Source: a virus (taxonomy: Duplodnaviria > Heunggongvirae > Uroviricota > Caudoviricetes). Taken from it: a DNA stretch of 38,561 nt. The translations under genes were made by a program, and so were the position numbers. A model generated the notes under the pieces. It was not told where the DNA came from. It saw nothing but the letters and a program-made list of their open reading frames with translations, and ran no database searches. Positions 1 to 37,153 of the stretch are shown here, piece by piece; positions within the stretch are counted from its first letter, which is position 1; each line of letters starts with the position of its first letter. The stretch lies in IMG/VR virus record IMGVR_UViG_2703718787_000016, one strand, 5' to 3'.

Positions 1-480
1 TCATAGCGGCTGCCAGGTTATGGGTAACCACTGCCAGGCGGCACCGGGTTCCATCTGGGCCAGCTTCATGACATAACGCGGTTGTTGAGATAAAGCGTCC
101 AGCTTCGGCATTAATAAAGTTTGTGCGGCGTTATAAAAAACCGGTTCGAGATTCTTCGGCAGACTGGTCAACGTTTCGTTACGCAGCAGTTTCGCCACGC
201 CTTGTGGATTGATATAGAGCGGAACGATGCCATCAGTGGGTATTACATCCACCATTGCCGGGCGGGTTTTATTCAGTGTTTGCAGCGCGTTATTAACCAG
301 CGTGTCATCGAGGGAGAAAAGCAGCGTTTTGTTTTGCATCGCCAGCGACACGCGGAAAAAATAATCCGACATTAATTGATCGGGTTGCGCCGCCTGCGCT
401 TTCGGATACTGGCCGTATCGGGAACTCACTTCGCGACGCCAGATTTGCCCTTCGCCCTGCTGAGTCTGGCTTACCGGCAA
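1..480 (-). CDS. Host chromosomal gene, partial (5' end in window, 3' end beyond position 1); product not recognised
   Basis: Open frame on the minus strand running off the window edge. It begins with TTG at 480..478 preceded by an AAGG Shine-Dalgarno-like motif, with no in-frame ATG upstream before a stop at 537..535. It lies outside the prophage, left of the candidate att core. Confidence 0.45.
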   Translation of the reverse strand: MPVSQTQQGEGQIWRREVSSRYGQYPKAQAAQPDQLMSDYFFRVSLAMQNKTLLFSLDDTLVNNALQTLNKTRPAMVDVIPTDGIVPLYINPQGVAKLLRNETLTSLPKNLEPVFYNAAQTLLMPKLDALSQQPRYVMKLAQMEPGAAWQWLPITWQPL

Positions 481-526
481 AACACCTTCTGGAGATTTAA
501 CACACCTTACTCCCCTTGATGATTTA

Positions 527-537
527 CTTATTTTTCA
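527..537. other. Candidate attL core (cttatttttca)
   Basis: Near-identical to ttttattttca at 37321..37331. On the minus strand each copy contains an in-frame TGA: the one at 37331..37329 terminates the right-hand host ORF. Inexact match, so the core boundaries are uncertain. Confidence 0.3.
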
Positions 538-581
538 ATGACTAAATCAAAACAAGGGGAGCAAATTAACGCAAATTACAA

Positions 582-1589
582 CTAGTCAATGGACAGTTTA
601 TGGACACTATCAGCCAGCGGATTAAAGCTAATCGCATCCTGTAAAAAGTCCGGTGAAAAATGCGCATACGTCATCGTTTGTTGAATCGTGGCGTGCCCAA
701 GGATTCGCTGTAACGTAACGATATTTCCGCCGTTCATCATGAAATGCGTGGCGAACGTGTGACGCATAACGTGAGTCGCCTGACCTTTGGGTAAATCCGG
801 TTTCACCTCCTGAAGGATATCCCGAAAACGGATGTAATCAGCCTGGTACAATAGCCCGGTTTTTCGGGTTTTTATCAACGAAAGCACCGTATCAGAAACA
901 GGAACCGCGCGGGATTTTCCATTCTTTGTGTTAAAGAACATTACGCGGTTACCAACGATATGCTCACCACGTAAGCCAGCTGCTTCCCCCCACCTTGCGC
1001 CAGTGGAAAGACACAGAACAGCAACACGACGCGCATCCCCCTCGAGTCGTTCAAGCAGCCGATCAATCTCATCATCTGAAAGAAAGGCCATTTCTGTATT
1101 CCTGACCTTGAGCTTACGTATTCCACGCACCGGGTTTTCGTTATGGAAAACCTCCGCATCAATCAGCGAGGTAAACATTGCAGACAAGGCGCACAAATCA
1201 CGATTAACACTGGAGGGCATTAATCCGGCCTGTAATTTGTCTGAACGATACCCGAGCATAAACTTTCGCGTCATCTCACTGGCGCGGGGGTCCCTCATCT
1301 CACGGTTTATTTTTTCCAGCCTGACCCTGTAAGTATCCCCGTAAGGCTGATTCCGGCCATCAAGCACCCACCAGGCATCTATCAGTTCGGATAACCGACG
1401 CTGATCAGCTGGCTTGGCCTGCCACGGTTTATCGTGGAAATTCTGCAAAACATACCTTTCAAACTCCTGTGCCTTTGACTTCAGGGTAAAAATCTTACGG
1501 ATCCGCTTTCCTTCCGTCCCTTGCGGTCTTACATCAACCTTATAACGCCCGTCTTTGAGTTGCTTAATCGACATGATTAGCCCCTCCAA
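582..1589 (-). CDS. int: Tyrosine site-specific integrase, P2 Int-like
   Basis: 335 aa with phage-integrase catalytic-domain signatures (ARWGEA, HVMRHTFATHFMMNGGNI, LQRILGHATIQQTMTYAHF, carrying the Arg, His-x-x-Arg and Tyr residues). Located at the prophage end next to att and upstream of the repressor, as in P2. Confidence 0.93.
   Translation of the reverse strand: MEGLIMSIKQLKDGRYKVDVRPQGTEGKRIRKIFTLKSKAQEFERYVLQNFHDKPWQAKPADQRRLSELIDAWWVLDGRNQPYGDTYRVRLEKINREMRDPRASEMTRKFMLGYRSDKLQAGLMPSSVNRDLCALSAMFTSLIDAEVFHNENPVRGIRKLKVRNTEMAFLSDDEIDRLLERLEGDARRVAVLCLSTGARWGEAAGLRGEHIVGNRVMFFNTKNGKSRAVPVSDTVLSLIKTRKTGLLYQADYIRFRDILQEVKPDLPKGQATHVMRHTFATHFMMNGGNIVTLQRILGHATIQQTMTYAHFSPDFLQDAISFNPLADSVHKLSID
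589..607. promoter_or_regulatory. Candidate integrase arm-type binding sites (P' arm): two direct ATGGACA repeats
   Basis: ATGGACAgtttATGGACAc overlapping the 3' end of int; a 17/19-identical copy sits at 37287..37305. Resembles the TGTGGACA arm-site consensus I recall for P2 Int. Confidence 0.4.
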
Positions 1590-1643
1590 CGGATGAATCA
1601 GCCGTACACTCTCTACGGGATGAAACCCGCTCGATGTACAGCG

Positions 1644-1985
1644 TTAGCCAGCATTGCGACGAGATCGGGGTGATTTTTGGGTAATGCCGATTGAAACCTG
1701 ATCGCCCTCCGACTGAATGGAGCCATCAAGAGAGAGAGCCGGGGCAACCTGCCCGGCAGCGGGAAATGTTTTGTCGTGAAGTATCCACATAGTGTATTTT
1801 TCGAATCGCTCGACTTGGATTACTTTTTCTACAACCTCAATTCGCGCAGGTTTATATCCAGACTCATAATTTCCTATAGTTCCTACAGAAACTCCCGTTA
1901 CTTGCGAAAACTGAGATTGTGTAAGGTTTTCCGCGTTTCTGATTGCCTTTAGTTTTTTGGCGTAATCTCTTGACATGTTCACCAT
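1644..1985 (-). CDS. Immunity repressor, P2 C-like (HTH_XRE)
   Basis: An N-terminal helix-turn-helix (LTQSQFSQVTGVSVGTIGNYESG) follows the ATG at 1985. It is transcribed with int and divergent from or overlapping the early operon start. The listed ORF extends to a GTG at 2126, so the start is uncertain. Confidence 0.75.
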   Translation of the reverse strand: MVNMSRDYAKKLKAIRNAENLTQSQFSQVTGVSVGTIGNYESGYKPARIEVVEKVIQVERFEKYTMWILHDKTFPAAGQVAPALSLDGSIQSEGDQVSIGITQKSPRSRRNAG

Positions 1986-2008
1986 ACGATGAGTATCCTC
2001 TATTCGAA

Positions 2009-2026
2009 CTTCACCACAGGGTGAAG
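2009..2026. promoter_or_regulatory. Perfect inverted repeat CTTCACC-ACAG-GGTGAAG in the repressor/early-operon switch region (candidate operator)
   Basis: A 7-bp perfect palindrome with 4-bp spacer between the repressor start and the early operon start. Confidence 0.3.
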
Positions 2027-2088
2027 TAAACAAATCAAAACAAACCTTCATGATGCGCGACAAGCGCACCAACGCAAGAGGATAGCAA

Positions 2089-2613
2089 ATGCGGAAGTCA
2101 ATTGCCGATAAAGAGTTATCTGACACACAAGCCCTTCAGGAAAACGACAGCATCACCGAATCCGTTGGCGCGGCAAACGACGATGAACACCAAGAGGAAA
2201 AGAAAAAACGCACCTACAAAAAAGGGGCAACCTTGCGACTGGATGGCCCGGTAGCCGGACTTTGCTCACTTGAAAAAGGGGCAGCCTATATCGGGTTGAC
2301 AAAAGCTGCATTGCGCGTGGCGCTTCAGCGAAATCAGATGCCTGGACACAAGACCCGTTCAAACCCTGAAGATGAAAATTCGGATGGCGTATGGTGGTTT
2401 AACGCCAGAGAGTGGGACAAGCTGGCTGACGAACTACCAGAATGCGAGCCGCCAGAATGGCACAACTGGAAAAGCTACTGGACGTACGACCGACAGAAAA
2501 GAAAGTTTTCCCCGGCAAACAAAGAAGACTGCCAGACCATCAATGGAAAGCGGGTTTACACAGGAAGAAAGTCAAAACTGGAGCAACACCAATACAGCGA
2601 AGGCAACCAGTGA
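2089..2613 (+). CDS. Cox/Apl-like early regulator (excisionase/repressor-type HTH); true start possibly internal (TTG at 2233)
   Basis: The segment GAAYIGLTKAALRVALQRNQMP...GVWWFNAREWDKL resembles the P2 Cox HTH and the following aromatic motif, and it is the first gene of the rightward early operon. The ORF is longer than Cox; an AAGGGG Shine-Dalgarno motif precedes TTG 2233. Confidence 0.5.
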   Translation: MRKSIADKELSDTQALQENDSITESVGAANDDEHQEEKKKRTYKKGATLRLDGPVAGLCSLEKGAAYIGLTKAALRVALQRNQMPGHKTRSNPEDENSDGVWWFNAREWDKLADELPECEPPEWHNWKSYWTYDRQKRKFSPANKEDCQTINGKRVYTGRKSKLEQHQYSEGNQ

Positions 2614-2664
2614 CATCAAAACAAACCGGGATCATTAAGAGCATCGGGATTTGAATGTGTTGAC

Positions 2665-2859
2665 ATGACTGACTCCACTCAAACAAAAGACTTATACAGC
2701 GATTTACGCTTCATCATCATACAACAGCAATCAGGCAGGATGGATCCAACACGTGCAAGCAAGGCCTGGAAAGAAGCCCTTACCGATCAGGGGATCGATG
2801 TAATTAGCGAAGTCATGGCTGAAGTGATTTTTAGGCTGACAAGAGACGAATCACTGTAA
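2665..2859 (+). CDS. Hypothetical early protein (64 aa)
   Basis: ORF in the early operon, same strand, no recognisable motif. Confidence 0.4.
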   Translation: MTDSTQTKDLYSDLRFIIIQQQSGRMDPTRASKAWKEALTDQGIDVISEVMAEVIFRLTRDESL

Positions 2860-2884
2860 TCATCGCATAAGGACCGAGTGAAGA

Positions 2885-3208
2885 ATGAAGCAACAACGAA
2901 ATGCACGCATCAATAACAACACCGAACGCCACGTTGCACGCCAGCACTTCCGTAAAAATAGTGCGACCGCAACCACTGAAATCCATACCACACCAGACGG
3001 TCATCCGGTAAAACAAACCGGAAAGCACACCTGGGCGATTGGCGACACTGGCATCGTTATTCACAAAAGTTTTCGTAGCCCTGTTACTGGCAGATTTAAT
3101 TTTACCCTGACTCGCGGAGATGATTACTTCGGACAGGACTTCACATTTTTTGAAGCGTTAAGAACGGTCGATCGGTTAATGACTGGTCGTAATTTTCACG
3201 CTAAATGA
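2885..3208 (+). CDS. Hypothetical early protein (107 aa)
   Basis: ORF with ATG after a GAG-rich Shine-Dalgarno-like region in the early operon; no recognisable motif. Confidence 0.5.
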   Translation: MKQQRNARINNNTERHVARQHFRKNSATATTEIHTTPDGHPVKQTGKHTWAIGDTGIVIHKSFRSPVTGRFNFTLTRGDDYFGQDFTFFEALRTVDRLMTGRNFHAK

Positions 3209-3221
3209 TACAGATGAAAAC

Positions 3222-3437
3222 ATGGAAACATACAAAATTAAAAATATTGAACACCATGACGGTTTTTTCAGCACTGAACATGTTGCTTGTGTTGTCAGGA
3301 TTTTCAATGAAGTAGATGTGATTTTGAAGCAAAACATAAAGCTTGAAATCATCGCAAAAAGCGAAGCCGACGCCATTGAAATAAAAAAAGCTATTGAACG
3401 CCAGATAATGCCGTTGACAAGTATCATTGCATTTTAA
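3222..3437 (+). CDS. Hypothetical early protein (71 aa), AT-rich
   Basis: ORF in a visibly AT-rich patch of the early operon. Confidence 0.45.
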   Translation: METYKIKNIEHHDGFFSTEHVACVVRIFNEVDVILKQNIKLEIIAKSEADAIEIKKAIERQIMPLTSIIAF

Positions 3438-3455
3438 GCAACAGGAAAAATAACC

Positions 3456-3695
3456 ATGACCAGAAATTACAAAGAAATCGTCAATCAGATCATTAAGGCT
3501 TACAGCCACCGCATCGCAAAATCACCCGAGTTCATACGCATAATGGAGACGCGCTCATTAATGCAAGGACTGAACGGGTTGGCACTGGCCGCATTGGCAG
3601 CTAACGATATTGATGCCACTATCGAAATAAACAACCTGTTATTAGACATTGAAAAAGGCGGAAACATAGAACCCTACAATCTGGAGGCCGCATGA
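3456..3695 (+). CDS. Hypothetical early protein (79 aa)
   Basis: ORF preceded by a GGAAAA-rich leader; ATGA overlap with the next small ORF suggests translational coupling. Confidence 0.5.
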   Translation: MTRNYKEIVNQIIKAYSHRIAKSPEFIRIMETRSLMQGLNGLALAALAANDIDATIEINNLLLDIEKGGNIEPYNLEAA

Positions 3696-3817
3696 GCGTA
3701 TTTCTTTCGTGGGTAATTCTGATTATCTCCGTGCTTATGACAATCGGCATTATGCGAATTATCCACACACTGAAGGATATCGAATTATTCTTTACCGGCG
3801 ATAAACGCCGTAAATAA
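3692..3817 (+). CDS. Small hydrophobic peptide (41 aa, one predicted transmembrane segment)
   Basis: Translation MSVFLSWVILIISVLMTIGIMRIIHTLKDIELFFTGDKRRK; its start overlaps the upstream stop (ATGA). Below the ORF-track size cutoff, so the call is tentative. Confidence 0.35.
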   Translation: MSVFLSWVILIISVLMTIGIMRIIHTLKDIELFFTGDKRRK

Positions 3818-3829
3818 AGCGAAAACCTT

Positions 3830-3931
3830 ATGAAGAATGTAAAAGCAATACTCACCATCGCCACTGTATGGGTGATATTTCAGGTGAGTGCGCTTATCTG
3901 GTTAGCCCTGAAGAATCTGGGGATAATCTGA
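3830..3931 (+). CDS. Small hydrophobic peptide (33 aa, one predicted transmembrane segment)
   Basis: Translation MKNVKAILTIATVWVIFQVSALIWLALKNLGII, immediately downstream of the 41-aa peptide. Tentative. Confidence 0.3.
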   Translation: MKNVKAILTIATVWVIFQVSALIWLALKNLGII

Positions 3932-4007
3932 AGCCGAAAGCAGGCGCGGAATAACACCAGAAAACACACGAACAATTAATTAAGGCATTCATGCCTTCGG
4001 ATTCCCT

Positions 4008-4262
4008 TTGTCTTTTTTCATGAGTCAACAAATGAGAACAGCCGAATCACCCGGCAGAAAAATAACCGCCAGACCAGCTAACCATCATGCACATATCAGC
4101 ATTGCCGCAAGAAAAGCCGAGCGTGCGCATATCTGCGAATTGCTGCATGACCTGGTTAACACAGCGAGAGAGAAGCACACCTCCCCGGAGGAAACCTGTT
4201 CATCCATTGAACGACTGATTGCAATACTCGCCAACCCAGACGAACTGAAGGGGTGCGCATAA
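4008..4262 (+). CDS. Hypothetical early protein (84 aa or shorter)
   Basis: ORF whose stop overlaps the exonuclease start (TAATG). Confidence 0.4.
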   Translation: MSFFMSQQMRTAESPGRKITARPANHHAHISIAARKAERAHICELLHDLVNTAREKHTSPEETCSSIERLIAILANPDELKGCA

Positions 4263-4843
4263 TGAACCATCTCATGATTGACACCGAAACACTGGGTAAC
4301 GGACCGGACGCAGCCATATTCGCGATTGGGGCGGTGTTTTTCGACCCGTTCACCGGAAAGCTGGGCAAGCAGTTTGAGAAATTCATCGACCCGGTGGATT
4401 CAGAACGCAACGGCGGAACCGTCAATGCAGCCACCGCTGTATGGTGGGCCGGACAATCCGTGGAAGCCAGAGCCTGCCTGCGCAACGCAGATGGAACAGA
4501 GCTGGCAGCAGTGACCGAATTTCTGGCGTTCATTTCACGCAATATGCATGACGAAAGCCCGGGCAATTCACTGAACATATGGTGTAAGGGCGCATCCTTC
4601 GATTTCCCGATCCTGAAATCCGCCATAACACGCACAGCCGGAGAAAAAAGCATCCCCTGGTGCTACTGGAACGAGCGCTGTATGCGCCCGCTTATCGCCA
4701 TGGCTGAATCAACTGGATGGAAAATGCCAGGCAGATCAGGCAAAGAGACCATTGCTCACACCGCGCTGGGCGACGCCGTTTACCAGGCAAAGGTCGTGTC
4801 AGAAATCTGGCAGCGCTTCACAACACCATTCCTGAACATATGA
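4262..4843 (+). CDS. 3'-5' exonuclease, DEDDh (DnaQ-like) family
   Basis: Exo motifs MIDTETLG (Asp-x-Glu), FDFPIL and HTALGDAVYQA (His...Asp). Confidence 0.8.
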   Translation: MNHLMIDTETLGNGPDAAIFAIGAVFFDPFTGKLGKQFEKFIDPVDSERNGGTVNAATAVWWAGQSVEARACLRNADGTELAAVTEFLAFISRNMHDESPGNSLNIWCKGASFDFPILKSAITRTAGEKSIPWCYWNERCMRPLIAMAESTGWKMPGRSGKETIAHTALGDAVYQAKVVSEIWQRFTTPFLNI

Positions 4844-5076
4844 GGTGAAGCCATGGTCGCCATCCTGAATGTGTGTTGCTGCCCCCCCCTGAACGTGGAA
4901 AGAAAAGCCCGCGCATCGCTGCGTTTATTCCGCGACGGCGTGCGGAATTTTTCACGCATAAAACCCCACGACTACCTGGTAATAAGAATCGGTTTTCGCT
5001 GGCGATTGCTGAGCAAAAACAACGGGGCGTCATGGGATTTATTAACGCACGAAACCTATAACAAAGAGGCCGCGTT

Positions 5077-6021
5077 ATGAGCAAAGAACTGTTATCCGGC
5101 ACGCCGCTTAAATGGGTGGGCGGAAAAAGTCGCATCATGAACACACTGAAGGCGCATCTGCCAGAAGCAGACTGCCTGGTTGAGCCGTTTGTGGGTGGCG
5201 CATCGGTATTCATGAACACCAGTTACAAGCGTTACATCCTGGGTGATTCCAATGGTGCGCTGATTAATTTCTACCGGCAAGCCAGGGACAACACCGACAG
5301 CCTGATCGACGAGGCGAAAACCCTGTTCCTGAACCACAACAACAGGGGTGACTATCTCATCATTCGCGAAACCTTTAACGCAGAGAATCATGCCTTCCTG
5401 AACAGCAGAACGGGAATAAGCGACCGCCGTGAACTGCGACTGGCCGCCATGTTTTTGTACCTGAACCGACACAGCTTTAACGGTTTGTTCCGCGTGAACG
5501 GAAAAGGCGATTTTAACGTGCCTTTCGGCTGCTACCGCAAGCCCTACTTCCCTGAGCGGGAAATCCGCGCATTTGCAGACAAGGCAAACAGCACCCGAAC
5601 GCTGCTTATCCACGCAGATTTTAAGGATACGCTGAACTCTGCCAGTCACCTGTTCGGCATGGGCAACACGCTTTGCGTGTACTGTGATCCCCCTTACCTG
5701 CGATTCAGTGGCCGGGACAATTTCACCGCCTACGGAAAACCATTCGATGAAGACGAGCACGTTCGTCTGAGGGCAGCGCTTGACCGCCTTTCACAGGAAA
5801 CGGGCGGCATGACCAGCATCACCATATCCAATTCCGACACACCGGAAACCAGACGCATTTATCAGGGTTACCGGATGAACGCCATCCAGGCACCACGAAG
5901 CGTTGGCGCAAGAACCCGGGAATCAGCACCGGAGGTTATCGCCACCCTGAGATGCATCACATCCGCCTTATCAACGGTTCGCACTTCTGCGCCACGAACA
6001 TGGAAGAAGTACGCGTGCTGA
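5077..6021 (+). CDS. dam: DNA adenine (N6) methyltransferase, Dam family
   Basis: N-terminal KWVGGK and FVGGASVF (SAM-binding motif I) and the catalytic DPPY motif (VYCDPPYLR). Confidence 0.9.
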   Translation: MSKELLSGTPLKWVGGKSRIMNTLKAHLPEADCLVEPFVGGASVFMNTSYKRYILGDSNGALINFYRQARDNTDSLIDEAKTLFLNHNNRGDYLIIRETFNAENHAFLNSRTGISDRRELRLAAMFLYLNRHSFNGLFRVNGKGDFNVPFGCYRKPYFPEREIRAFADKANSTRTLLIHADFKDTLNSASHLFGMGNTLCVYCDPPYLRFSGRDNFTAYGKPFDEDEHVRLRAALDRLSQETGGMTSITISNSDTPETRRIYQGYRMNAIQAPRSVGARTRESAPEVIATLRCITSALSTVRTSAPRTWKKYAC

Positions 6022-6049
6022 CAGCAACACGCAATACGGGAGGTAAAGC

Positions 6050-6400
6050 ATGGCAGTGATTTATATCGCCGGTCCCATGACCGGATGCAAAGACCACAAC
6101 AGGACGGCATTTTGCGTGGAGGACCTGAAACTTCGGTGCGCCGGAAACATCGTTCTTAATCCTGCCGTACTGCCTGACGGATTAAGCCAGCAGCAGTACA
6201 TGAGCATTTGTATTCCGATGCTCATGTGTGCCGATGCCATTTACTTACTGGAAGGCTGGGTGGATTCAGCTGGCGCGCGGGCGGAGTACGTAATGGCACT
6301 CAAACTGAACATGCCAGTGTCATTCCCGGAAAACCGGGCAGCCGGAGAAACCATCGCGCAGCTGCTTCACAAATCAAAAGCCGCACAGGCGACTGAGTAA
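6050..6400 (+). CDS. DUF4406-like (nucleoside 2-deoxyribosyltransferase-like) protein
   Basis: N-terminal MAVIYIAGPMTG motif typical of this family; immediately downstream of dam. Confidence 0.6.
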   Translation: MAVIYIAGPMTGCKDHNRTAFCVEDLKLRCAGNIVLNPAVLPDGLSQQQYMSICIPMLMCADAIYLLEGWVDSAGARAEYVMALKLNMPVSFPENRAAGETIAQLLHKSKAAQATE

Positions 6401-6838
6401 CCGACCGGAGATCGAAACATGATTGCGCGAAGAGCTGCCAACCGCCTCACAGGCTTTATTCCAGGCAAGGTTGATCATGCACTCCATCACGGGGCTGTCA
6501 CTTTCCTCAACAAAGGAGAGGCGCGCAATCATGCATTCCGGAGTGAGCACGTGGCGCTGGCTAATCAGTCTTTGATAGCTAAGCGCCTGCCATTCAGCCT
6601 TTTCAGCTCTGATAGAAAGAGAGGCAGCCATGACCTGCCACACCAGAAAGAGCACCACACTGGCGAAAACAAACGTTGCGCTGTCGCAAAAAATGAATGC
6701 GGCAACAATCGCAAGGAAAGCGCTAATCCTCAGAACCAAGGAAGCGCGACGGTGGAGAAGGCTTGTCATGTGTTCAAGCCAGTAGCTGTACCACAGGTCA
6801 AAAAGAATTTCGTAATCAGAAGGGAGCTTATCACTCAT
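6374..6838 (-). CDS. Predicted membrane protein encoded antisense to the early operon (about 154 aa)
   Basis: ATG at 6838 followed by two long hydrophobic segments (ISAFLAIVAAFIFC, FVFASVVLFLVWQVMAASL). The plus strand across this stretch has no convincing gene. Confidence 0.4.
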   Translation of the reverse strand: MSDKLPSDYEILFDLWYSYWLEHMTSLLHRRASLVLRISAFLAIVAAFIFCDSATFVFASVVLFLVWQVMAASLSIRAEKAEWQALSYQRLISQRHVLTPECMIARLSFVEESDSPVMECMINLAWNKACEAVGSSSRNHVSISGRLLSRLCGF

Positions 6839-7221
6839 CAGAAACACCCCGCGTATGCAGACAATCACCAGTTGCCAGGTGATATTAATTCGCCACATTC
6901 TAACCACATCAGCACGCAACACAAAAACCGCTTGCCAGCGCTCGTCGTGTCGGGTTACATTTCCGCTGCACCTCATAAAACGGGTGCCGGGATTTCCACC
7001 CTGCTGACTAGCAAAGCGCACTACCGCGCCAGCGGTTTTTTTGTGCGTACTGTATTGCCACGTTTTTTTCGCATCAGAATTATGGCGGGGCGTACGGGGC
7101 CGACTTCGGTCGGGCCGGGTTCTTTGCTAGCCGGTTGTGGAAACCCTGTACGTCTCGCCACCCCGAGTTTTCCACCTCCGGTTGGTGAGTTTTCAAAACT
7201 TACTAGCAAAGAGGCCACACC

Positions 7222-7443
7222 ATGGCAAACCGCAAGCAACAGCGCGCCCGCGCTGAGCGTCTTCACATCCGCAGCGAAATCAACCGCAGACTTTTCCGCG
7301 CAACACGCGTCGCGCAAATCATGCATATCAACATGCTGCATGAGCGCACGCACGCACTATCAAACCGTTACTGCGCTGCCGTCTTCAGCTATCTGGCCGA
7401 AGACCTGGCAGAACTGCAAAGCCTCATCAACCAGCACCGATAA
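7222..7443 (+). CDS. Hypothetical basic protein (73 aa)
   Basis: ATG preceded by an AGAGG Shine-Dalgarno motif; Arg-rich N-terminus. Confidence 0.4.
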   Translation: MANRKQQRARAERLHIRSEINRRLFRATRVAQIMHINMLHERTHALSNRYCAAVFSYLAEDLAELQSLINQHR

Positions 7444-7511
7444 ACCACATCCGGAAGCTATCCCACACCTGCACGCGGGAGGCTTCCGCACATCTGTTAC
7501 CGGAGGTTCTC

Positions 7512-7928
7512 ATGAAGAGCGTTAAGGGACTTTCAGATATTCAGGACTTCTTTAACTGGATGTGGGCGGTGGATCCCCTGCTGGCTTCCCGCCTGAACAA
7601 CTGGCACGACTATTACCGCCGCGCCTGTAAACAGGCCGCCCGCAGCATCACCACATACGGGGATTTCTCCTTCACCGTTGACGGTCGTTACCGCGTGGAC
7701 GTGAAAGGTGACGGTGATGGCTTTGGTTTATTTCACATCAACGGCACCGACAGTACCGCCATCAGCTGGTCATCGTCAGAGATGGCACTGGTTCTGGAAA
7801 TGACAACCCACAGCGTGGCCGTGAAAGGCATATACACCGCAGAAGACTTTATCGGTGAATACCAGCGCCTTCTCGTGCTGTACCGCGCGGCGTTTCAGGA
7901 GGTCACTGGCGGGGAGTACGACGCATGA
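7512..7928 (+). CDS. Hypothetical protein upstream of the replication gene (138 aa)
   Basis: GGAGG Shine-Dalgarno motif before the ATG; stop overlaps the gpA start (ATGA). Confidence 0.55.
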   Translation: MKSVKGLSDIQDFFNWMWAVDPLLASRLNNWHDYYRRACKQAARSITTYGDFSFTVDGRYRVDVKGDGDGFGLFHINGTDSTAISWSSSEMALVLEMTTHSVAVKGIYTAEDFIGEYQRLLVLYRAAFQEVTGGEYDA

Positions 7929-10438
7929 GTGACCGCAATGCACAGCTGGCGTACCCGTGGAACGCACCGCTACCGGTTATCGATCCTGAAACGTTCGGCA
8001 GAGCACAACCAACCGCATTACGCCAGGCCATTCAGAGCTACATCAACGAGGACATTCGCATTGATGCCAGACTGGATGAAGAAACCGTCTCCTTCCTGAC
8101 AAACACAGACGAAGGCAAGCGAATTAATTCGCATCTTCACCACGACGAAGAGCGTCGGGTCAGACTGGAAAAACTGGCGAAGCACAAACGCGAGAATCCG
8201 CCCACGGTGGTATCGGAAGCCATGGCAGAACTTCGCGCCCTGCCCTCGTTTCTTGGCAACGTGCTCATTCGTGATCTGGCGCGTTTAAACCGCAAACAAC
8301 AAAGCGCCCGCAATGAAGGCGTGAAAAACAACAACACTCACGTGGCCGATAACTTCGTTCGCCGTGGACTGCGCACACGCCTGAAACGCATCGAACAGGT
8401 GAATGAATGCTTCGCCACGACGGCATTCAAAGCCACCGCAGCGCGTCATCGCCTTGATGAATTACTCATGCTGCCACAACTCAACCGTGATCAAATTCAG
8501 CGCCTTGCCACACTAACGGCGGCGGCATTTTCCACCGAACTGGAACGCATATGTGATGAAGTTACTGAGCGGACAGGAAAAGGCGACGATAACCTGTTTA
8601 CCTGGTTGCTGACTTACCAGCAGCTGGCGCGCATGGCAATAAAACTGGGCGTGAACCCACCATACTGGCCGTCACTCGAGATCAGACGTGACCGCCGCAC
8701 GGCACCAGACCCTGAACGGGTACCGGGCGCGGTAATGCGTATCACCTGCGCCACCTGGTGGAACAACCAGCTGCGCCACCTCGCTGATCTCTGGCGGGAG
8801 GAATTACTGCGTGCCGCCGGAAGAGTATCGCGCAAGGCATCCCCCTACATCAGCCATGAGTCACTCCAGGAATTCCGGGAGAAACGCCAGCGCACCCGTG
8901 ATTTTCTCAAAAGCTGGGACATTGAAAACGAAGACGGTGAACGCCTGAGCCTGGAGGACGTGTACTGGTCAGGGCTGGGGAATCCGCGCAACCGCCGCAA
9001 CGAGATGATGGCCTGCGTCAGAGGGATGGAACAGGTCGCCGAATCGCGTGGTGACTCCGCGTTCTTCGTGACAGTGACCTGCCCTTCCCGCTTTCACAGC
9101 GTAAACGAGGACGGCAGCCTGAACCAGAAATACAACGGTGCCACCGTGCGCGATGCCAGTGATTATCTGGTTTACGACGTCTTTGCAGCTGCAAGAAAAA
9201 AACTCAACAAAGAAGGCCTGAGCTGGTACGGGGTGCGCACCGTTGAGCCACACCATGACGGCACACCGCACTGGCACATGCTGGTATTCACCGCCCCGGA
9301 CAATGAAGAACGCATCATTGAAATCATGCGTGACGCAGCAATCAAATCAGATCGCGCAGAACTGGGGAATGATATTTCTCCGCGCTTCAAGTGCGAAAAA
9401 ATCGACCCGGCAAAAGGCACACCGGCAAGCTACATCGCAACCTATATTGGCAAGAACCTGGACGCCAGCACCTTTCACGACAATGACCCGAAAACCGGCA
9501 AACCTTACGCCGATAAAGAATCGGGAAAAACCATGGCGGAAACCGTGGAAAACGCCATTGCCTGGGCGAGTCTCCACCGCATCCGGCAGTTCCAGTTCTT
9601 CGGTATCCCGCCCCGCCAGGTATGGCGTGAACTCCGCCGCCTTGCCGGACAAATGGAGCGTAACCCCGCATCACCGAAGCGCCTGGACCATGACGACATT
9701 GACGCCATTCTGGCCGCCGCTGACGTGGGGTGTTTTGCCACCTACATCAACCGTCAGGGCGGCGTGCTCATTCCACGCAACCTGTACCTGATCCGCACCG
9801 CATACGAAACCGCAGATGAGGCCAACGACTACGGCGAATTCCCGCAGCGCATCTACGGAATTTGTGCCCCGTCGCTCGGCGAGCGCTACACCATCTGCAC
9901 CCATCCGGACGAGTGGAAACTGGTCAGAAAAGAAGCGAAAGCCGACAACAGCACGGACGAGGATTTTGACGTTGGGGGCGGCTTCGCCGCACCTTGGACT
10001 CGTGGCAATAACTGTCCCCATGATGAAAAAACAGACACCGGAGAGGGTAAAACCCCACCACCGGAAACCAGGAAAGAACAAAAACTGACCATCCCGGAAG
10101 GTGATTTGAGCGAATGGTTAAGGTCACTGACCCCCACAGAGAGAAAACAACTCACCAGGCAGCTGAAAGATGCGCCATCTGACACAAAAACCGTGAAAAC
10201 CGGCGGCCCCACCACGCCCGATGACGTCATACATGTGCGTACAGCATTGCCGCTGACTGACGTCACCACCACCGTAATCAAGTCGGCACTGAGCACGACG
10301 GGCGAGGAGCTACACAGTGGCGCAGCACTTTCCGTACACAGAGGTGCACGCGTTCGCCTGCCTGACGGGCGGATTGTGCACTGGGATGAAAAATCACGAA
10401 GCCTGGTGGCAGCAGATCAACCGGAGGTTAACCCATGA
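7925..10438 (+). CDS. A: Replication initiation endonuclease, P2 gpA-like (rolling-circle HUH initiator)
   Basis: 837 aa with an HUH-type metal motif (HHDGTPHWHMLVF) and paired active-site tyrosines (YIATYIGKNL); position and size match P2 gene A. Confidence 0.92.
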   Translation: MSDRNAQLAYPWNAPLPVIDPETFGRAQPTALRQAIQSYINEDIRIDARLDEETVSFLTNTDEGKRINSHLHHDEERRVRLEKLAKHKRENPPTVVSEAMAELRALPSFLGNVLIRDLARLNRKQQSARNEGVKNNNTHVADNFVRRGLRTRLKRIEQVNECFATTAFKATAARHRLDELLMLPQLNRDQIQRLATLTAAAFSTELERICDEVTERTGKGDDNLFTWLLTYQQLARMAIKLGVNPPYWPSLEIRRDRRTAPDPERVPGAVMRITCATWWNNQLRHLADLWREELLRAAGRVSRKASPYISHESLQEFREKRQRTRDFLKSWDIENEDGERLSLEDVYWSGLGNPRNRRNEMMACVRGMEQVAESRGDSAFFVTVTCPSRFHSVNEDGSLNQKYNGATVRDASDYLVYDVFAAARKKLNKEGLSWYGVRTVEPHHDGTPHWHMLVFTAPDNEERIIEIMRDAAIKSDRAELGNDISPRFKCEKIDPAKGTPASYIATYIGKNLDASTFHDNDPKTGKPYADKESGKTMAETVENAIAWASLHRIRQFQFFGIPPRQVWRELRRLAGQMERNPASPKRLDHDDIDAILAAADVGCFATYINRQGGVLIPRNLYLIRTAYETADEANDYGEFPQRIYGICAPSLGERYTICTHPDEWKLVRKEAKADNSTDEDFDVGGGFAAPWTRGNNCPHDEKTDTGEGKTPPPETRKEQKLTIPEGDLSEWLRSLTPTERKQLTRQLKDAPSDTKTVKTGGPTTPDDVIHVRTALPLTDVTTTVIKSALSTTGEELHSGAALSVHRGARVRLPDGRIVHWDEKSRSLVAADQPEVNP

Positions 10439-10839
10439 CACGATTCCATTGCGTACTCCAGCGCCATGATTTCAGCACCATCATGAACGCACGCATTCCG
10501 GCACTGACACTGAGCGGCGTCAGTGTTCGACCGCAGCCAGGCGACGAACTGGAAATCACGATCGCCAGTCCCGATCGCAGCACAGACACCGTTATGACCG
10601 ACATCCTGACTGCAAGAATCAACACCGACAGAAGCGCATTCATCGTTGCCGTGCGCCCTCGTCGCGCCATATCAGAGCCTGAACCACTGACTCCCGTAGG
10701 AAAAATCATGCAGGCATACCACGAAAAACAGACCAGAAAACTCAACGAAGAACTGGCAAGAACGCTGGCCGTCGTTAACCGAAAAGCGGCAATTGTCCGC
10801 TATGTGCATTCGGCCGCCAGCAGGCAATCACGCAGGTAA
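10435..10839 (+). CDS. Hypothetical protein after gpA (134 aa)
   Basis: ORF overlapping the gpA stop; no motif recognised. Confidence 0.5.
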   Translation: MTRFHCVLQRHDFSTIMNARIPALTLSGVSVRPQPGDELEITIASPDRSTDTVMTDILTARINTDRSAFIVAVRPRRAISEPEPLTPVGKIMQAYHEKQTRKLNEELARTLAVVNRKAAIVRYVHSAASRQSRR

Positions 10840-10887
10840 CAAAAGACCATGAACATGACCAGAAACAGCAAACCGAAGGAGCACACC

Positions 10888-11058
10888 ATGAACGACATCA
10901 GGAGGATCAGCGACAAAGAGCTTACGAAAATGATTGAGTCGGCGCAGCAGCTGCTTTCACGACGAAATCCGGTTGTGGAAGAAACATGGTGGGAAAATTT
11001 ACTGGCAGCACTGACCGAACTCCGCGAACGCCGGAACAACGAAGGAGCCGCCAAATGA
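10888..11058 (+). CDS. Hypothetical small protein (56 aa)
   Basis: AAGGAG Shine-Dalgarno motif upstream of the ATG at 10888; stop overlaps the next start (ATGA). Confidence 0.4.
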   Translation: MNDIRRISDKELTKMIESAQQLLSRRNPVVEETWWENLLAALTELRERRNNEGAAK

Positions 11059-11393
11059 AGACACCCAGAATGACCGGAAAGGTAATCATTTTACGCTACC
11101 TGGAAACGCACGCACGCTTCAGCGCACCAGAGCTGGTTGAAAAACTGGGCGTGAAAAGGACCATCATTAATCAGGCCGCCGGGAAGATGGTACGCGAAGG
11201 GCTGCTGGTTGTGGACGGGTACACGGACAAGATAACGCATTACCGGAAGCTAACGGAAAAGGAACGACTGGAGCTGGCGCAACGGGCAGAATGGCAACAA
11301 GAGCCGTCCGTAATTGAAGCCTGCAAGCGCAGCGAAATCATGAAGCGAATTCTATTTATCTACGGCGCTGGCGAAGAGCTGCCAGTCATCTAA
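11055..11393 (+). CDS. Putative winged-helix DNA-binding protein (112 aa)
   Basis: GGAG Shine-Dalgarno motif then ATG at 11055; helix-turn-helix-like segment (SAPELVEKLGVKRTIINQAAGKMVREGLL). Assignment by pattern only. Confidence 0.45.
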   Translation: MKTPRMTGKVIILRYLETHARFSAPELVEKLGVKRTIINQAAGKMVREGLLVVDGYTDKITHYRKLTEKERLELAQRAEWQQEPSVIEACKRSEIMKRILFIYGAGEELPVI

Positions 11394-11425
11394 CCCCAAC
11401 AATAAAACCAACACGGGAGACAAAT

Positions 11426-11743
11426 ATGCCAACACAGGTTGCAACAGAGGGACGACTGGCAGCAGACCCGAACACAAGGAGAACAACCAAAGGAACCAAC
11501 GTCACAACGGCACAACTGGCGGTATCACTACCCTGCCATGGCGCAGAACAGCCAACCACAATGTGGCTTTACCTTATTGCATTCGGGAAGCAGCACGAAG
11601 AACTGGCAAAACACAGAAAAGGCGATCTGATTCTGGTGCACGGAAACTTGCAGGTAAACAGGTATCAGGACAAGTACGGGCAACAGAAAGAGGGCTGGCA
11701 GTTGCTGGCGCAAAGCATTATCAGCTCAAGAACCGGGCGATGA
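11426..11743 (+). CDS. SSB-like OB-fold protein lacking a C-terminal tail (105 aa)
   Basis: Aligns by eye to the bacterial SSB OB-fold core (EGRLAADP...T..G..V; WLYLIAFGKQHEELAKHRKGDLILVHGNL...Y.D.YGQ), with no Gly/Pro-rich linker or acidic tail. Confidence 0.6.
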   Translation: MPTQVATEGRLAADPNTRRTTKGTNVTTAQLAVSLPCHGAEQPTTMWLYLIAFGKQHEELAKHRKGDLILVHGNLQVNRYQDKYGQQKEGWQLLAQSIISSRTGR

Positions 11744-11753
11744 CTTCACGCAT

Positions 11754-11794
11754 GTTACCCTCAGCAGCGAGGGTAACACAGGATTTCTTTTTTC
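11754..11794 (+). terminator. Rho-independent terminator ending the early operon
   Basis: Perfect 9-bp stem GTTACCCTC/GAGGGTAAC with 6-nt loop, followed by a T-run (tttcttttttc). Confidence 0.5.
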
Positions 11795-12329
11795 AGTCAA
11801 ACCGAAATCGGCCGCTTGTCGCGTATGCATAGGTGACCACCGCACCCAGCGCATTCACACGCTTCTTCACATAAATCACATTACCATCCTGATAGTCACC
11901 GTATGGGTAGCAAATAAATATTGTTTTTTGCAAATCAGGATCATCAACAAATGCCCCTGAACAACTTTTTGAGCTACCGCGACTGTACTCATAGGGAGCG
12001 GAATAGAATGAATCTTCACCCGGAAGAAAATATATCAGCGTAACCAGGAGGGTAAACAGAATCATCCAGGTAAGAAGGCACATACCCGAAAAAAACTTAA
12101 GATACGATGTAACCCCGGTAAATTTAGACCGATCAACCAGGTTCTTTTTCAACAGGCACAGTGAGACAAAAACCGAAAGCACCACAGACACTGAAACAAG
12201 GCAGTTTGTCGTGAACGAATAAAGGTAGGTAATTCTGTAAACATCGTTTCGCCACCAAATAAAAAGAAAAATCCCCCCCAAAACAGAAAGCGTGACAAAA
12301 GTTAAATAAGGATATGAGTAATTTTTCAT
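11793..12329 (-). CDS. Accessory membrane protein of unknown function (178 aa; three hydrophobic segments and a Cys/Tyr-rich C-terminal domain)
   Basis: ATG at 12329; hydrophobic segments (LTFVTLSVLGGIFLFIWW, LVSVSVVLSVFVSLCLL, MCLLTWMILFTLLVTLIYFL). AT-rich codon usage unlike the neighbouring phage genes; sits between the early-operon terminator and the candidate cos. Confidence 0.55.
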   Translation of the reverse strand: MKNYSYPYLTFVTLSVLGGIFLFIWWRNDVYRITYLYSFTTNCLVSVSVVLSVFVSLCLLKKNLVDRSKFTGVTSYLKFFSGMCLLTWMILFTLLVTLIYFLPGEDSFYSAPYEYSRGSSKSCSGAFVDDPDLQKTIFICYPYGDYQDGNVIYVKKRVNALGAVVTYAYATSGRFRFD

Positions 12330-36103: not shown

Positions 36104-36406
36104 ATGTTTCATTGTCCATTCTGCGGCGCATCTGCCCGGATCCGTACCAGTAAAGCCGCCAATGATACCGGCACCATCCGCTACAAATACTATCAGTGCA
36201 ATAACCTTGAGTGCAGCGCCACATTTTCAACAATGGAAAGTGTGCACAGAATTATTGGCCAGCCTCAGTTGATCTTCCACGATAAAGATATTCCACGGGA
36301 GACAATGCGCAAATCCCATCAGGGACGCAGTCAGTTAACGCTACAACTGGAGGATTGCGGTATGGCTTTAAAACCAGTACATTACGCGCGGGTGCCTTTC
36401 GGCTGA
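36104..36406 (+). CDS. ogr: Late transcription activator, Ogr/Delta zinc-finger family, with a C-terminal extension
   Basis: MFHCPFCGASARIRTS...YYQCNNLECSATFSTMESVHR matches the P2 Ogr Cys4 zinc-finger core; the ORF continues about 30 codons beyond the usual Ogr length into the first hok-locus repeat. Confidence 0.85.
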   Translation: MFHCPFCGASARIRTSKAANDTGTIRYKYYQCNNLECSATFSTMESVHRIIGQPQLIFHDKDIPRETMRKSHQGRSQLTLQLEDCGMALKPVHYARVPFG

Positions 36407-36540: not shown

Positions 36541-36681
36541 ATGCCGCAAAAAACGATCATCGTGAGCATTTTATGCTTAACCATGTTGTTGGCCATCTGG
36601 ATGATACACCGTTCGCCGTGTGAGTTCAGACTTAACATCATGTGGTCAGAATTTGCGGCGTTCTTGCAGTGTAAACAGTAA
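36541..36681 (+). CDS. hok: Hok/Gef-family type I toxin (46 aa), copy 1
   Basis: Translation MPQKTIIVSILCLTMLLAIWMIHRSPCEFRLNIMWSEFAAFLQCKQ. Shares the Hok family signature with HokA as I recall it (N-terminal MPQK, transmembrane segment, R-x-S-x-C-E, E-x-AAFL-x-CK). AAGGAG Shine-Dalgarno motif 10 nt upstream. Below the ORF-track size cutoff. Confidence 0.6.
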   Translation: MPQKTIIVSILCLTMLLAIWMIHRSPCEFRLNIMWSEFAAFLQCKQ

Positions 36682-37012: not shown

Positions 37013-37153
37013 ATGCCGCAAAAAACGATCATCGTGAGCATTTTATGCTTAACCATGTTGTTGACAGTCTGGATGATACACCGTTCGCCGTGTGAGTTCA
37101 GACTTAACATCATGTGGTCAGAATTTGCGGCGTTCTTGCAGTGTAAACCGTAA
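37013..37153 (+). CDS. hok: Hok/Gef-family type I toxin (46 aa), copy 2
   Basis: Translation MPQKTIIVSILCLTMLLTVWMIHRSPCEFRLNIMWSEFAAFLQCKP, differing from copy 1 at three residues; same Shine-Dalgarno context. Confidence 0.6.
   Translation: MPQKTIIVSILCLTMLLTVWMIHRSPCEFRLNIMWSEFAAFLQCKP

Follow-up and report, generated by a model that had tools for sequence, protein, structure and literature searches.

The stretch of DNA analyzed here, hereafter the window, is the 38,561-nucleotide IMG/VR record IMGVR_UViG_2703718787_000016 (Caudoviricetes). The subject of this report is a patch of small genes at positions 3222-3931, and in particular a 41-codon gene for a predicted membrane peptide that overlaps the end of a DUF4754 gene. 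From protein-level searches, which placed it with phage P88 and its relatives, the window is assigned as a complete P88-like prophage of Escherichia coli (genus Xuanwuvirus, family Peduoviridae, the P2 family); a megablast search of 3100-4300 against the phage collection returned no match, the P88 relatives surfacing only at the protein level. The same segment is 100% identical to the chromosome of E. coli S19-651 (NZ_CP075852), where a complete prophage lies between nadA and a tRNA-Lys/Val cluster. Within the early lytic operon of this P88-like prophage, the patch is an accessory part close to the promoter.

A first-pass annotation of the window had described four short open reading frames (ORFs) between a Cox-like gene and an exonuclease gene, the last two of 41 and 33 codons. 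All four are present, on the same strand, with 71, 79, 41 and 33 codons, and RefSeq annotates the first three. Searches of Pfam, PHROGs, NCBIfam, PADLOC and the PDB sequences linked none of them to a family of known function, and PADLOC gave no match for any of the four at E-values up to 1. The features of the patch and of its downstream flank are as follows.

3222..3437, plus strand: 71-codon ORF
3456..3695, plus strand: DUF4754 gene, 79 codons
3692..3817, plus strand: 41-codon ORF
3817..3949, plus strand: 133-bp insertion/deletion segment with AATAA repeats at its bounds, carrying the 33-codon ORF
3830..3931, plus strand: 33-codon hydrophobic ORF, MKNVKAILTIATVWVIFQVSALIWLALKNLGII, coding status unproven
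3982..4018, plus strand: hairpin AAGGCA-TTCA-TGCCTT (3982-3997), followed by CGGATTC and, at 4012-4018, a T-run, upstream of the next gene (ATG at 4020 or 4032)

A conserved peptide gene coupled to DUF4754

The 41-codon ORF encodes MSVFLSWVILIISVLMTIGIMRIIHTLKDIELFFTGDKRRK and is a real, conserved gene for a predicted membrane peptide. RefSeq annotates it as hypothetical (WP_062851068), as it does other members of the family (WP_000021704, WP_000021656), and the phage P88 homologue, gp07, is annotated as a "membrane protein" (YP_009113050). The P88 and RefSeq homologues are 37-41 amino acids (aa) long and 63-100% identical to the window peptide, and they share its overlap with the DUF4754 gene and its place in the early operon; the window copy is the 41-aa form with a KRRK end and T17, the P88 copy the 37-aa form. 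A length of 37-41 codons is kept across 95 loci. At least 123 of the 5426 complete E. coli genomes carry a homologue, as do E. albertii, E. fergusonii and 12 records of the phage collection, including P88 and Citrobacter phage Shae_phiSM. The N-terminal core of the family, M-[SN]-x-F-x-S-W-[LV]-x-L-I ... G-I-M-R-I-I, is present in the window peptide (MSVFLSWVILIISVLMTIGIMRII...), and profile E-values against family members reach down to 1e-22.

Selection acts on the encoded protein. Across 36 distinct DNA sequences the ratio of nonsynonymous to synonymous diversity (pN/pS) is 0.28, with pS at 0.42 and pN at 0.12, and the two parts of the gene behave similarly (0.26 for codons 1-24 and 0.30 for codons 25-37). 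The peptide frame is the sole one that stays open: stop codons or ratios of at least 0.7 are found in the other forward frames and in two of the reverse ones, and the antisense frame sharing third codon positions is interrupted by stops in 7 of 13 sequences. The first-pass annotation had placed the tiny ORFs below standard gene-calling thresholds. This does not hold for the 41-codon gene, which the NCBI pipeline calls and the P88 record annotates; it does hold insofar as the gene is missing from some records (Shae_phiSM has no coding sequence (CDS) there, and the RefSeq record of phage 520873 has the DUF4754 gene alone) and the 33-codon ORF is unannotated in RefSeq.

An ATGA overlap, also noted in the first pass, is indeed seen, as that of the 41-codon ORF (ATG 3692-3694) on the TGA (3693-3695) of the 79-codon ORF. 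A GGAGG at 3683-3687 precedes it with a spacer of 4 nt. The ATGA/TGA overlap with a DUF4754 gene of 79-80 codons recurs in 95 of the 95 related loci, even where the DUF4754 partners share only 25-29% identity, and a G-rich, Shine-Dalgarno-like stretch stands before the peptide ATG in every locus type. Because the start of the peptide gene is thus physically coupled to termination of DUF4754, the two proteins are very probably co-produced upon release from the C repressor. Moreover, every full-length DUF4754 locus in the phage collection (12/12 records) also carries the peptide. The coupling goes unmentioned in the literature searched.

The partner, the 79-codon ORF, matches DUF4754 (Pfam PF15946) at 32.8 bits against a gathering threshold of 27, and phrog_2549 at E = 2.7e-24. 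Its predicted structure is a three-helix bundle with a predicted local distance difference test score (pLDDT) of 82 and a disordered C-terminus carrying a conserved E-P-Y motif; the alignment behind this model was shallow, a word-indexed protein search having supplied only 7 close relatives, and fold searches with the model gave generic helical matches only. The window protein is very diverged: a tblastn search with it against the phages returned no match, whereas the P88 version matched 14 records.

Outside this setting the peptide is scarcely encountered. When 1.84 billion cluster representatives were searched with a profile of the peptide alignment, about 20 clusters matched, every one belonging to the peptide family, and distant relatives were not found; a search of the PDB sequences gave nothing meaningful, and neither PHROG nor Pfam holds a model of the family, despite its annotation in several phage genomes. 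In a scan of one genome per species (185,579 species) the peptide appeared in two records only, E. albertii and "Vagococcus sp.". The latter (L095; NZ_JBQPOM010000071.1, Vagococcus sp. WN89Y) is a 226-kb contig whose prophage early region is of the Escherichia type and shares 92.6% identity with E. coli prophages along 5 kb; contamination or mislabelling seems the likeliest reason for its presence in a Gram-positive assembly.

Anatomy of the peptide

The two smallest products had been described as almost entirely hydrophobic with a short basic tail. In the 41-aa peptide the hydrophobic part is limited to residues 3-24, a membrane segment of 22 residues, and is followed by a charged tail of 17 residues ending in KRRK. 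The best 19-residue Kyte-Doolittle mean is 2.61, the highest hydropathy among all small ORFs of the window. AlphaFold2 predicts one helix over residues 2-35, with pLDDT of 85-93 for residues 1-30, and a disordered end. Every charge (+6/-3) lies C-terminal to residue 21, and the positive-inside rule applied to these charges suggests that the two or three N-terminal residues would be periplasmic, residues 3-24 would cross the inner membrane, and the tail would be cytoplasmic.

In a set of 45 distinct peptides S6, W7 and L10 are invariant and I11, A17, G19 and I24 nearly so; the variable positions are 5, 8, 9, 15 and 16. The tail holds R22, K28, a conserved I30-E31-x-F-F34 motif and the terminal KRRK, of which K28, I30, E31 and F34 are kept in the family. 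Natural variants with frameshifted tails also occur, namely a 34-aa form on 388 contigs and 45-aa forms. Phage Chuche (PP925824; locus L010, 3001-3093) has a 30-codon form with a stop at codon 31, and since this is a complete-genome record, the cytoplasmic tail appears to be dispensable for plaque formation.

The 33-codon reading frame

The first-pass annotation had treated the 41- and 33-codon ORFs alike, as genes for small membrane peptides, and had named conservation across related prophages as a check. The 41-codon ORF bears this out as a real, conserved, single-helix and invariantly coupled gene found at 95 loci. The 33-codon ORF does not: it lacks deep conservation (21 of 5426 genomes) and a Shine-Dalgarno sequence, and its C-terminus is frameshifted among variants. 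Its product is hydrophobic, as had been claimed (hydropathy 2.15), with lysines at K2, K5 and K28, and has no basic tail.

The ORF resides in the 133-bp segment, which is lacking in L002 and L012, both close relatives, as well as in every P88-type locus. It is present in 13 of the 95 loci compared and, among the complete E. coli genomes, always in this context and at an identity of at least 96.5%. Scans of viral and metagenomic data with exact words from the insert recovered two more DNA variants, in the same context where checked (L109), and the phage collection held no match to the 33-aa product. The ORF belongs to a rare, lineage-specific recent insert and may or may not be translated.

The 33-codon ORF may be a chance ORF, and on balance we lean slightly towards there being no gene here, the hydrophobic look of a frame in non-coding DNA arising from T-rich codons. 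Besides the narrow distribution of the insert and the missing Shine-Dalgarno, the five DNA variants recovered favor this explanation, as their C-termini differ by frameshift (NLGII, IWE and IWG). The usual form has 31 codons and ends in KIWE, and a one-base insertion in the window and two other genomes produces NLGII. A frequent variant, L8H, places a His within the helix. The density of variable sites in codons 1-28 (7/84) equals that of adjacent non-coding DNA (7/82), the corresponding figure for the 41-codon gene being 13/126, and the sites are spread 2, 2 and 3 over the three codon positions; with equal densities, selection on the 33-codon ORF is neither shown nor excluded. Furthermore, 5 of 190 ATG-initiated ORFs of 25-60 codons in the six frames of the window (about 3%) score 2.2 or higher, and a membrane-like look of a small ORF alone is not beyond chance.

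Translation of the ORF is, in our judgment, only somewhat less probable than its absence. The frame stays open for at least 28 codons in all five variants, and the most diverged of these combines two synonymous changes with three conservative replacements (T to S, V to L and S to C). The ORF is on the sense strand of a tightly packed operon, with its ATG 12 nt past the stop of the 41-codon gene, so that re-initiation is plausible, and it occupies most of an unusually long gap of 214 nt. In the protein databases its product occurs only as a 2-member cluster, and the 31-aa form has been called by one pipeline, in a metagenome-assembled phage genome. A further, though unlikely, possibility is that the insert marks the recent birth or capture of a second membrane micro-gene of 31-33 aa in the operon. 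The pair makes a clean test case for small-gene annotation, as one tiny ORF is validated comparatively and an equally convincing-looking neighbor cannot be.

Operon context

The gene layout is of the P2-family type. Beyond the patch itself, the following features define the setting of the peptide gene.

582-1574, minus strand: integrase
1644-1985, minus strand: helix-turn-helix-domain protein at the position of the P2 C repressor
1970..1999, plus strand: promoter-like site (TTGACA, 18 nt, TATCCT; 10/12 hexamer matches) between the repressor gene and the Cox-like gene
2089-2613, start of the rightward operon: Cox-like gene, then a hypothetical gene
2885-3208, plus strand: DUF4761 gene
4032-4262, after a gap: hypothetical gene, then 3'-5' exonuclease, ParE-like gene and Dam methylase
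7925-10438: replication endonuclease (gpA), then late genes
19976-21329, late region: lysis genes (lysozyme, DUF2570 gene, Rz1-like LysC gene)

By its position, the site at 1970..1999 is the probable early promoter of the operon that carries the peptide gene; promoter-like sites in the region are no more numerous than expected from shuffled sequence.

Possible function

What the peptide does we infer from its sequence. The reading that we tentatively prefer, and would put a little short of even, is that of a small effector in the inner membrane, co-produced with DUF4754 during early lytic growth, that acts through contacts of its membrane helix. According to this reading the peptide would act by helix-helix contact in the membrane, as known small single-pass membrane proteins do, and the contact face would comprise F4, S6, W7, L10, I11, A17 and G19 to I24. 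The peptide would target either a protein of the host inner membrane or, by forming an oligomer, itself, and the DUF4754 three-helix bundle, produced alongside it, would serve as partner on the cytoplasmic side. Some host membrane function would thereby be altered transiently at an early point of lytic growth; cell division or the entry of competing phages, for instance, might be blocked. The genomic context speaks in favor, the peptide gene lying between the Cox-like gene and the genes for exonuclease and gpA.

Membrane regulators of comparable build include AcrZ, MgrB, MgtS and SidA, of which AcrZ, MgrB and SidA are paired with AcrB, PhoQ and FtsW, respectively. Small single-pass membrane regulators have been reviewed (PMC12648545). 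The peptide resembles AcrZ, MgrB, MgtS and SidA in its size of 30-50 aa, its single membrane helix, its very short extracytoplasmic end and the concentration of conserved residues in the helix; it differs in having no sequence relation to them, in being encoded by a phage, and in being coupled to the gene of a soluble protein. Blocking host division is a widespread phage strategy (PMC6206680, PMC3961180), and lambda Kil (PMC3961180), Qin DicB (PMC6832061) and T7 Gp0.4 are small early or prophage proteins that disturb host division or inner-membrane proteins. These three are soluble, however, and act on FtsZ, MinC or ManYZ, whereas the peptide is a predicted integral membrane helix unrelated to them in sequence. 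The closest parallel in position is found in phage 186. There a pair of small accessory genes that overlap each other, fil (which blocks division) and dhr (which blocks replication), occupies an equivalent place in the early operon; the terminator tR1 comes next, then non-essential genes, among them one for an exonuclease, and then gene A. No clear membrane helix is seen in Fil or Dhr, both are unlike the peptide by eye, and the analogy is one of position only.

Several points weigh against an effector that acts through its helix. The periodicity of variability along the peptide peaks near 105 degrees per residue, as for one conserved helix face, and should be interpreted with some caution since it is weakly significant (672 of 10000 permutations reach it, p ~0.07). 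The tail is itself under purifying selection, at the ratio given above, and the membrane helix may therefore not be the sole active part. Peptides sharing 93-95% identity have DUF4754 partners that share no more than 29%, which indicates recombination breaks at the junction and makes a tightly co-adapted complex unlikely. Homology to 186 Fil, suggested by a resemblance of "IRIVH" to "MRIIH", was rejected, as hhalign gave a probability of 0.6% over 5 aligned columns. The family is confined to phages of Escherichia and Citrobacter and is no general trait of P2-like phages. Finally, the literature searched on DUF4754, Xuanwuvirus, P88 and small membrane proteins, and a preprint on ribosome profiling of uropathogenic E. 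coli, contained nothing on the genes of the patch or on the peptide family.

A more far-reaching version of the effector reading, which we regard as unlikely although worth stating, is that DUF4754 and the 37-41-aa peptide constitute an unrecognised two-component host-takeover module specific to Xuanwuvirus phages, in which the helix would bind and inhibit a host inner-membrane protein (such as one of the late divisome, of phage entry or of transport) with DUF4754 as its cytoplasmic partner. If the module acts on a host membrane protein, it would be a phage-encoded, integral-membrane addition to the few small proteins that govern membrane machines of bacteria, and it would provide DUF4754 with a function. 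As matters stand, the 41-codon gene is an already annotated, uncharacterised gene and forms, with DUF4754, an accessory gene pair of one P2-like phage genus. The first-pass annotation had raised host takeover, inhibition of division or replication, or a toxin-like role, and any role of that kind is likewise one that we only infer.

The anchor function is the strongest competitor of the effector reading, though an improbable one. Here the peptide would serve mainly to hold DUF4754 at the membrane, its tail (K28, I30, E31, F34) docking the helical bundle, and DUF4754 would be the active component, for example in organizing DNA replication at the membrane. A parallel exists in phi29, in which p16.7 organizes phage DNA replication at the membrane. 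The invariant 4-nt overlap, the constant co-occurrence of the two genes and the purifying selection on the tail are all consistent with an anchor, and the disordered E-P-Y motif of DUF4754 could be a docking peptide. Yet near-identical peptides stand beside strongly diverged DUF4754 proteins, tails are frameshifted or missing in nature (phage Chuche, the 388 contigs with the 34-aa form, and the 45-aa forms), and the residues that vary least sit in the membrane helix. Somewhat less probable still is a membrane-damaging toxin, of a type I or holin-like kind, that would depolarise or permeabilise the inner membrane and so bring about host shut-off or set the timing of lysis. A small hydrophobic peptide with a polar, charged C-terminal end is the general shape of type I toxins such as Hok/Gef, Fst and TisB, and tight translational coupling could keep the dose low. 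The gene lies, however, within a polycistronic operon with its own GGAGG and not at a stand-alone locus, and no promoter of its own is evident: promoter-like sites do not exceed the shuffled expectation, and the one antisense promoter-like site near the peptide is weak (3743-3716, 9/12). No antisense RNA family was matched in positions 1-12000 except C4 and isrK, which are located elsewhere, the peptide region itself being without an Rfam match. Neither HOK_GEF nor any other toxin model in Pfam or NCBIfam matched either tiny peptide, while the true Hok/Gef genes of the window, at 36541 and 37013, do find their models, and by context and model matches we reject classification as a type I toxin. 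Assignment as a holin or antiholin was rejected too, the peptide being in the early operon and the lysis cassette in the late region at 19976-21329; the membrane segment is, moreover, free of charged or strongly polar residues that could line a pore.

It is very improbable, lastly, that what is conserved at 3692-3817 is an element of the RNA or DNA, or a leader ORF with a regulatory role alone and no functional peptide. A conserved hairpin does follow the segment closely, and a short coupled ORF can have a regulatory role. Nevertheless, the combination of high synonymous diversity with kept amino acids is the opposite of what constraint on nucleotides would produce, specific residues are invariant over 45 distinct peptides, and no Rfam family is matched.

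The AT-rich trough and the 71-codon gene

The patch had been called AT-rich, and this is correct for the region as a whole: GC content over 3222-3931 is 0.40, compared with a window mean of 0.536 (standard deviation (sd) 0.049). The trough is not, however, located at the tiny peptide ORFs. The lowest 300-bp GC content in the 38.5-kb window, 0.34 at 3201-3500 and about 4 sd below the mean, coincides with the 71-codon gene (GC 0.34), the values for the 41- and 33-codon ORFs being 0.39 and 0.43. The 71-codon gene, annotated in RefSeq as WP_062851070, fills a variable slot between the DUF4761 and DUF4754 genes. A 70-codon orthologue in the related locus L002 shares 52% amino-acid identity and has an equally low GC content, L003-type relatives are without the gene, and P88 has an unrelated 92-codon gene in the same slot. 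Its pN/pS is 0.59 (3 sequences), and neither Pfam, PHROG and NCBIfam nor PADLOC gave a match. We take it for an unrelated accessory gene of the usual exchangeable kind.

Beside it, a 36-codon ORF at 3205-3315 (plus strand) begins by an ATGA overlap with the DUF4761 stop (3205-3208), in a frame different from that of the 71-codon gene. It is probably a chance ORF, because its L002 counterpart starts with GTG elsewhere.

The downstream hairpin and the start of the next gene

A short hairpin is found between the peptide gene and the next gene in every related locus; in loci L004-L096 it lies about 40-60 nt downstream of the peptide gene. The P88-type hairpin reads TCCGC-N4-GCGGA followed by GGnATTC, with a compensatory variant TCCGT-N4-ACGGA; MAFFT left the base correspondence between the window hairpin and this type ambiguous. 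Folding of 3950-4035 (z = -1.0) and of 3800-4040 (z = -1.7) was not significantly better than that of shuffled sequence. In phage 186 the terminator tR1 sits at the equivalent position. The hairpin could serve to terminate or attenuate the transcript, or as a site of its processing.

The next gene may start differently in the window prophage, at 4020 instead of 4032. In relatives the ATG at 4032 is preceded by CAGGAG, which makes a good Shine-Dalgarno sequence, and the CATGAG of the window both weakens this sequence and creates an in-frame ATG at 4020.

Other elements of the window

Further along the early operon, a ParE-like toxin-domain ORF (4853-5080, plus strand; Pfam ParE_like, 64 bits) overlaps the first 4 nt of the gene for Dam methylase, which starts at 5077, and no neighboring antitoxin gene is annotated. 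On the plus strand, an isrK match (6968-7042; Rfam, 58.9 bits) lies beside a C4 antisense RNA (7078-7165; 80.3 bits), just upstream of a gene at 7222-7443. This gene is annotated as hypothetical in the window, and its counterparts at the same place in L004, L006 and P88 are called "derepression protein", which suggests that the RNA pair and the gene may form an anti-repressor module under RNA control, of the P1/P7 type. The 62-codon hypothetical CDS that RefSeq places on the opposite strand at 6973-7161 is probably a mis-call.

At the far end of the window, the last phage-type gene annotated is an ogr/Delta-like gene (36104-36406), and past it are two Hok/Gef-family toxin genes at 36541-36681 and 37013-37153 (plus strand). 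The first of them matches Pfam HOK_GEF at 26.6 bits (threshold 22) and, scoring 36.6 with the NCBIfam HokA model, falls so far below its cut-off of 89 that it must be counted as diverged.

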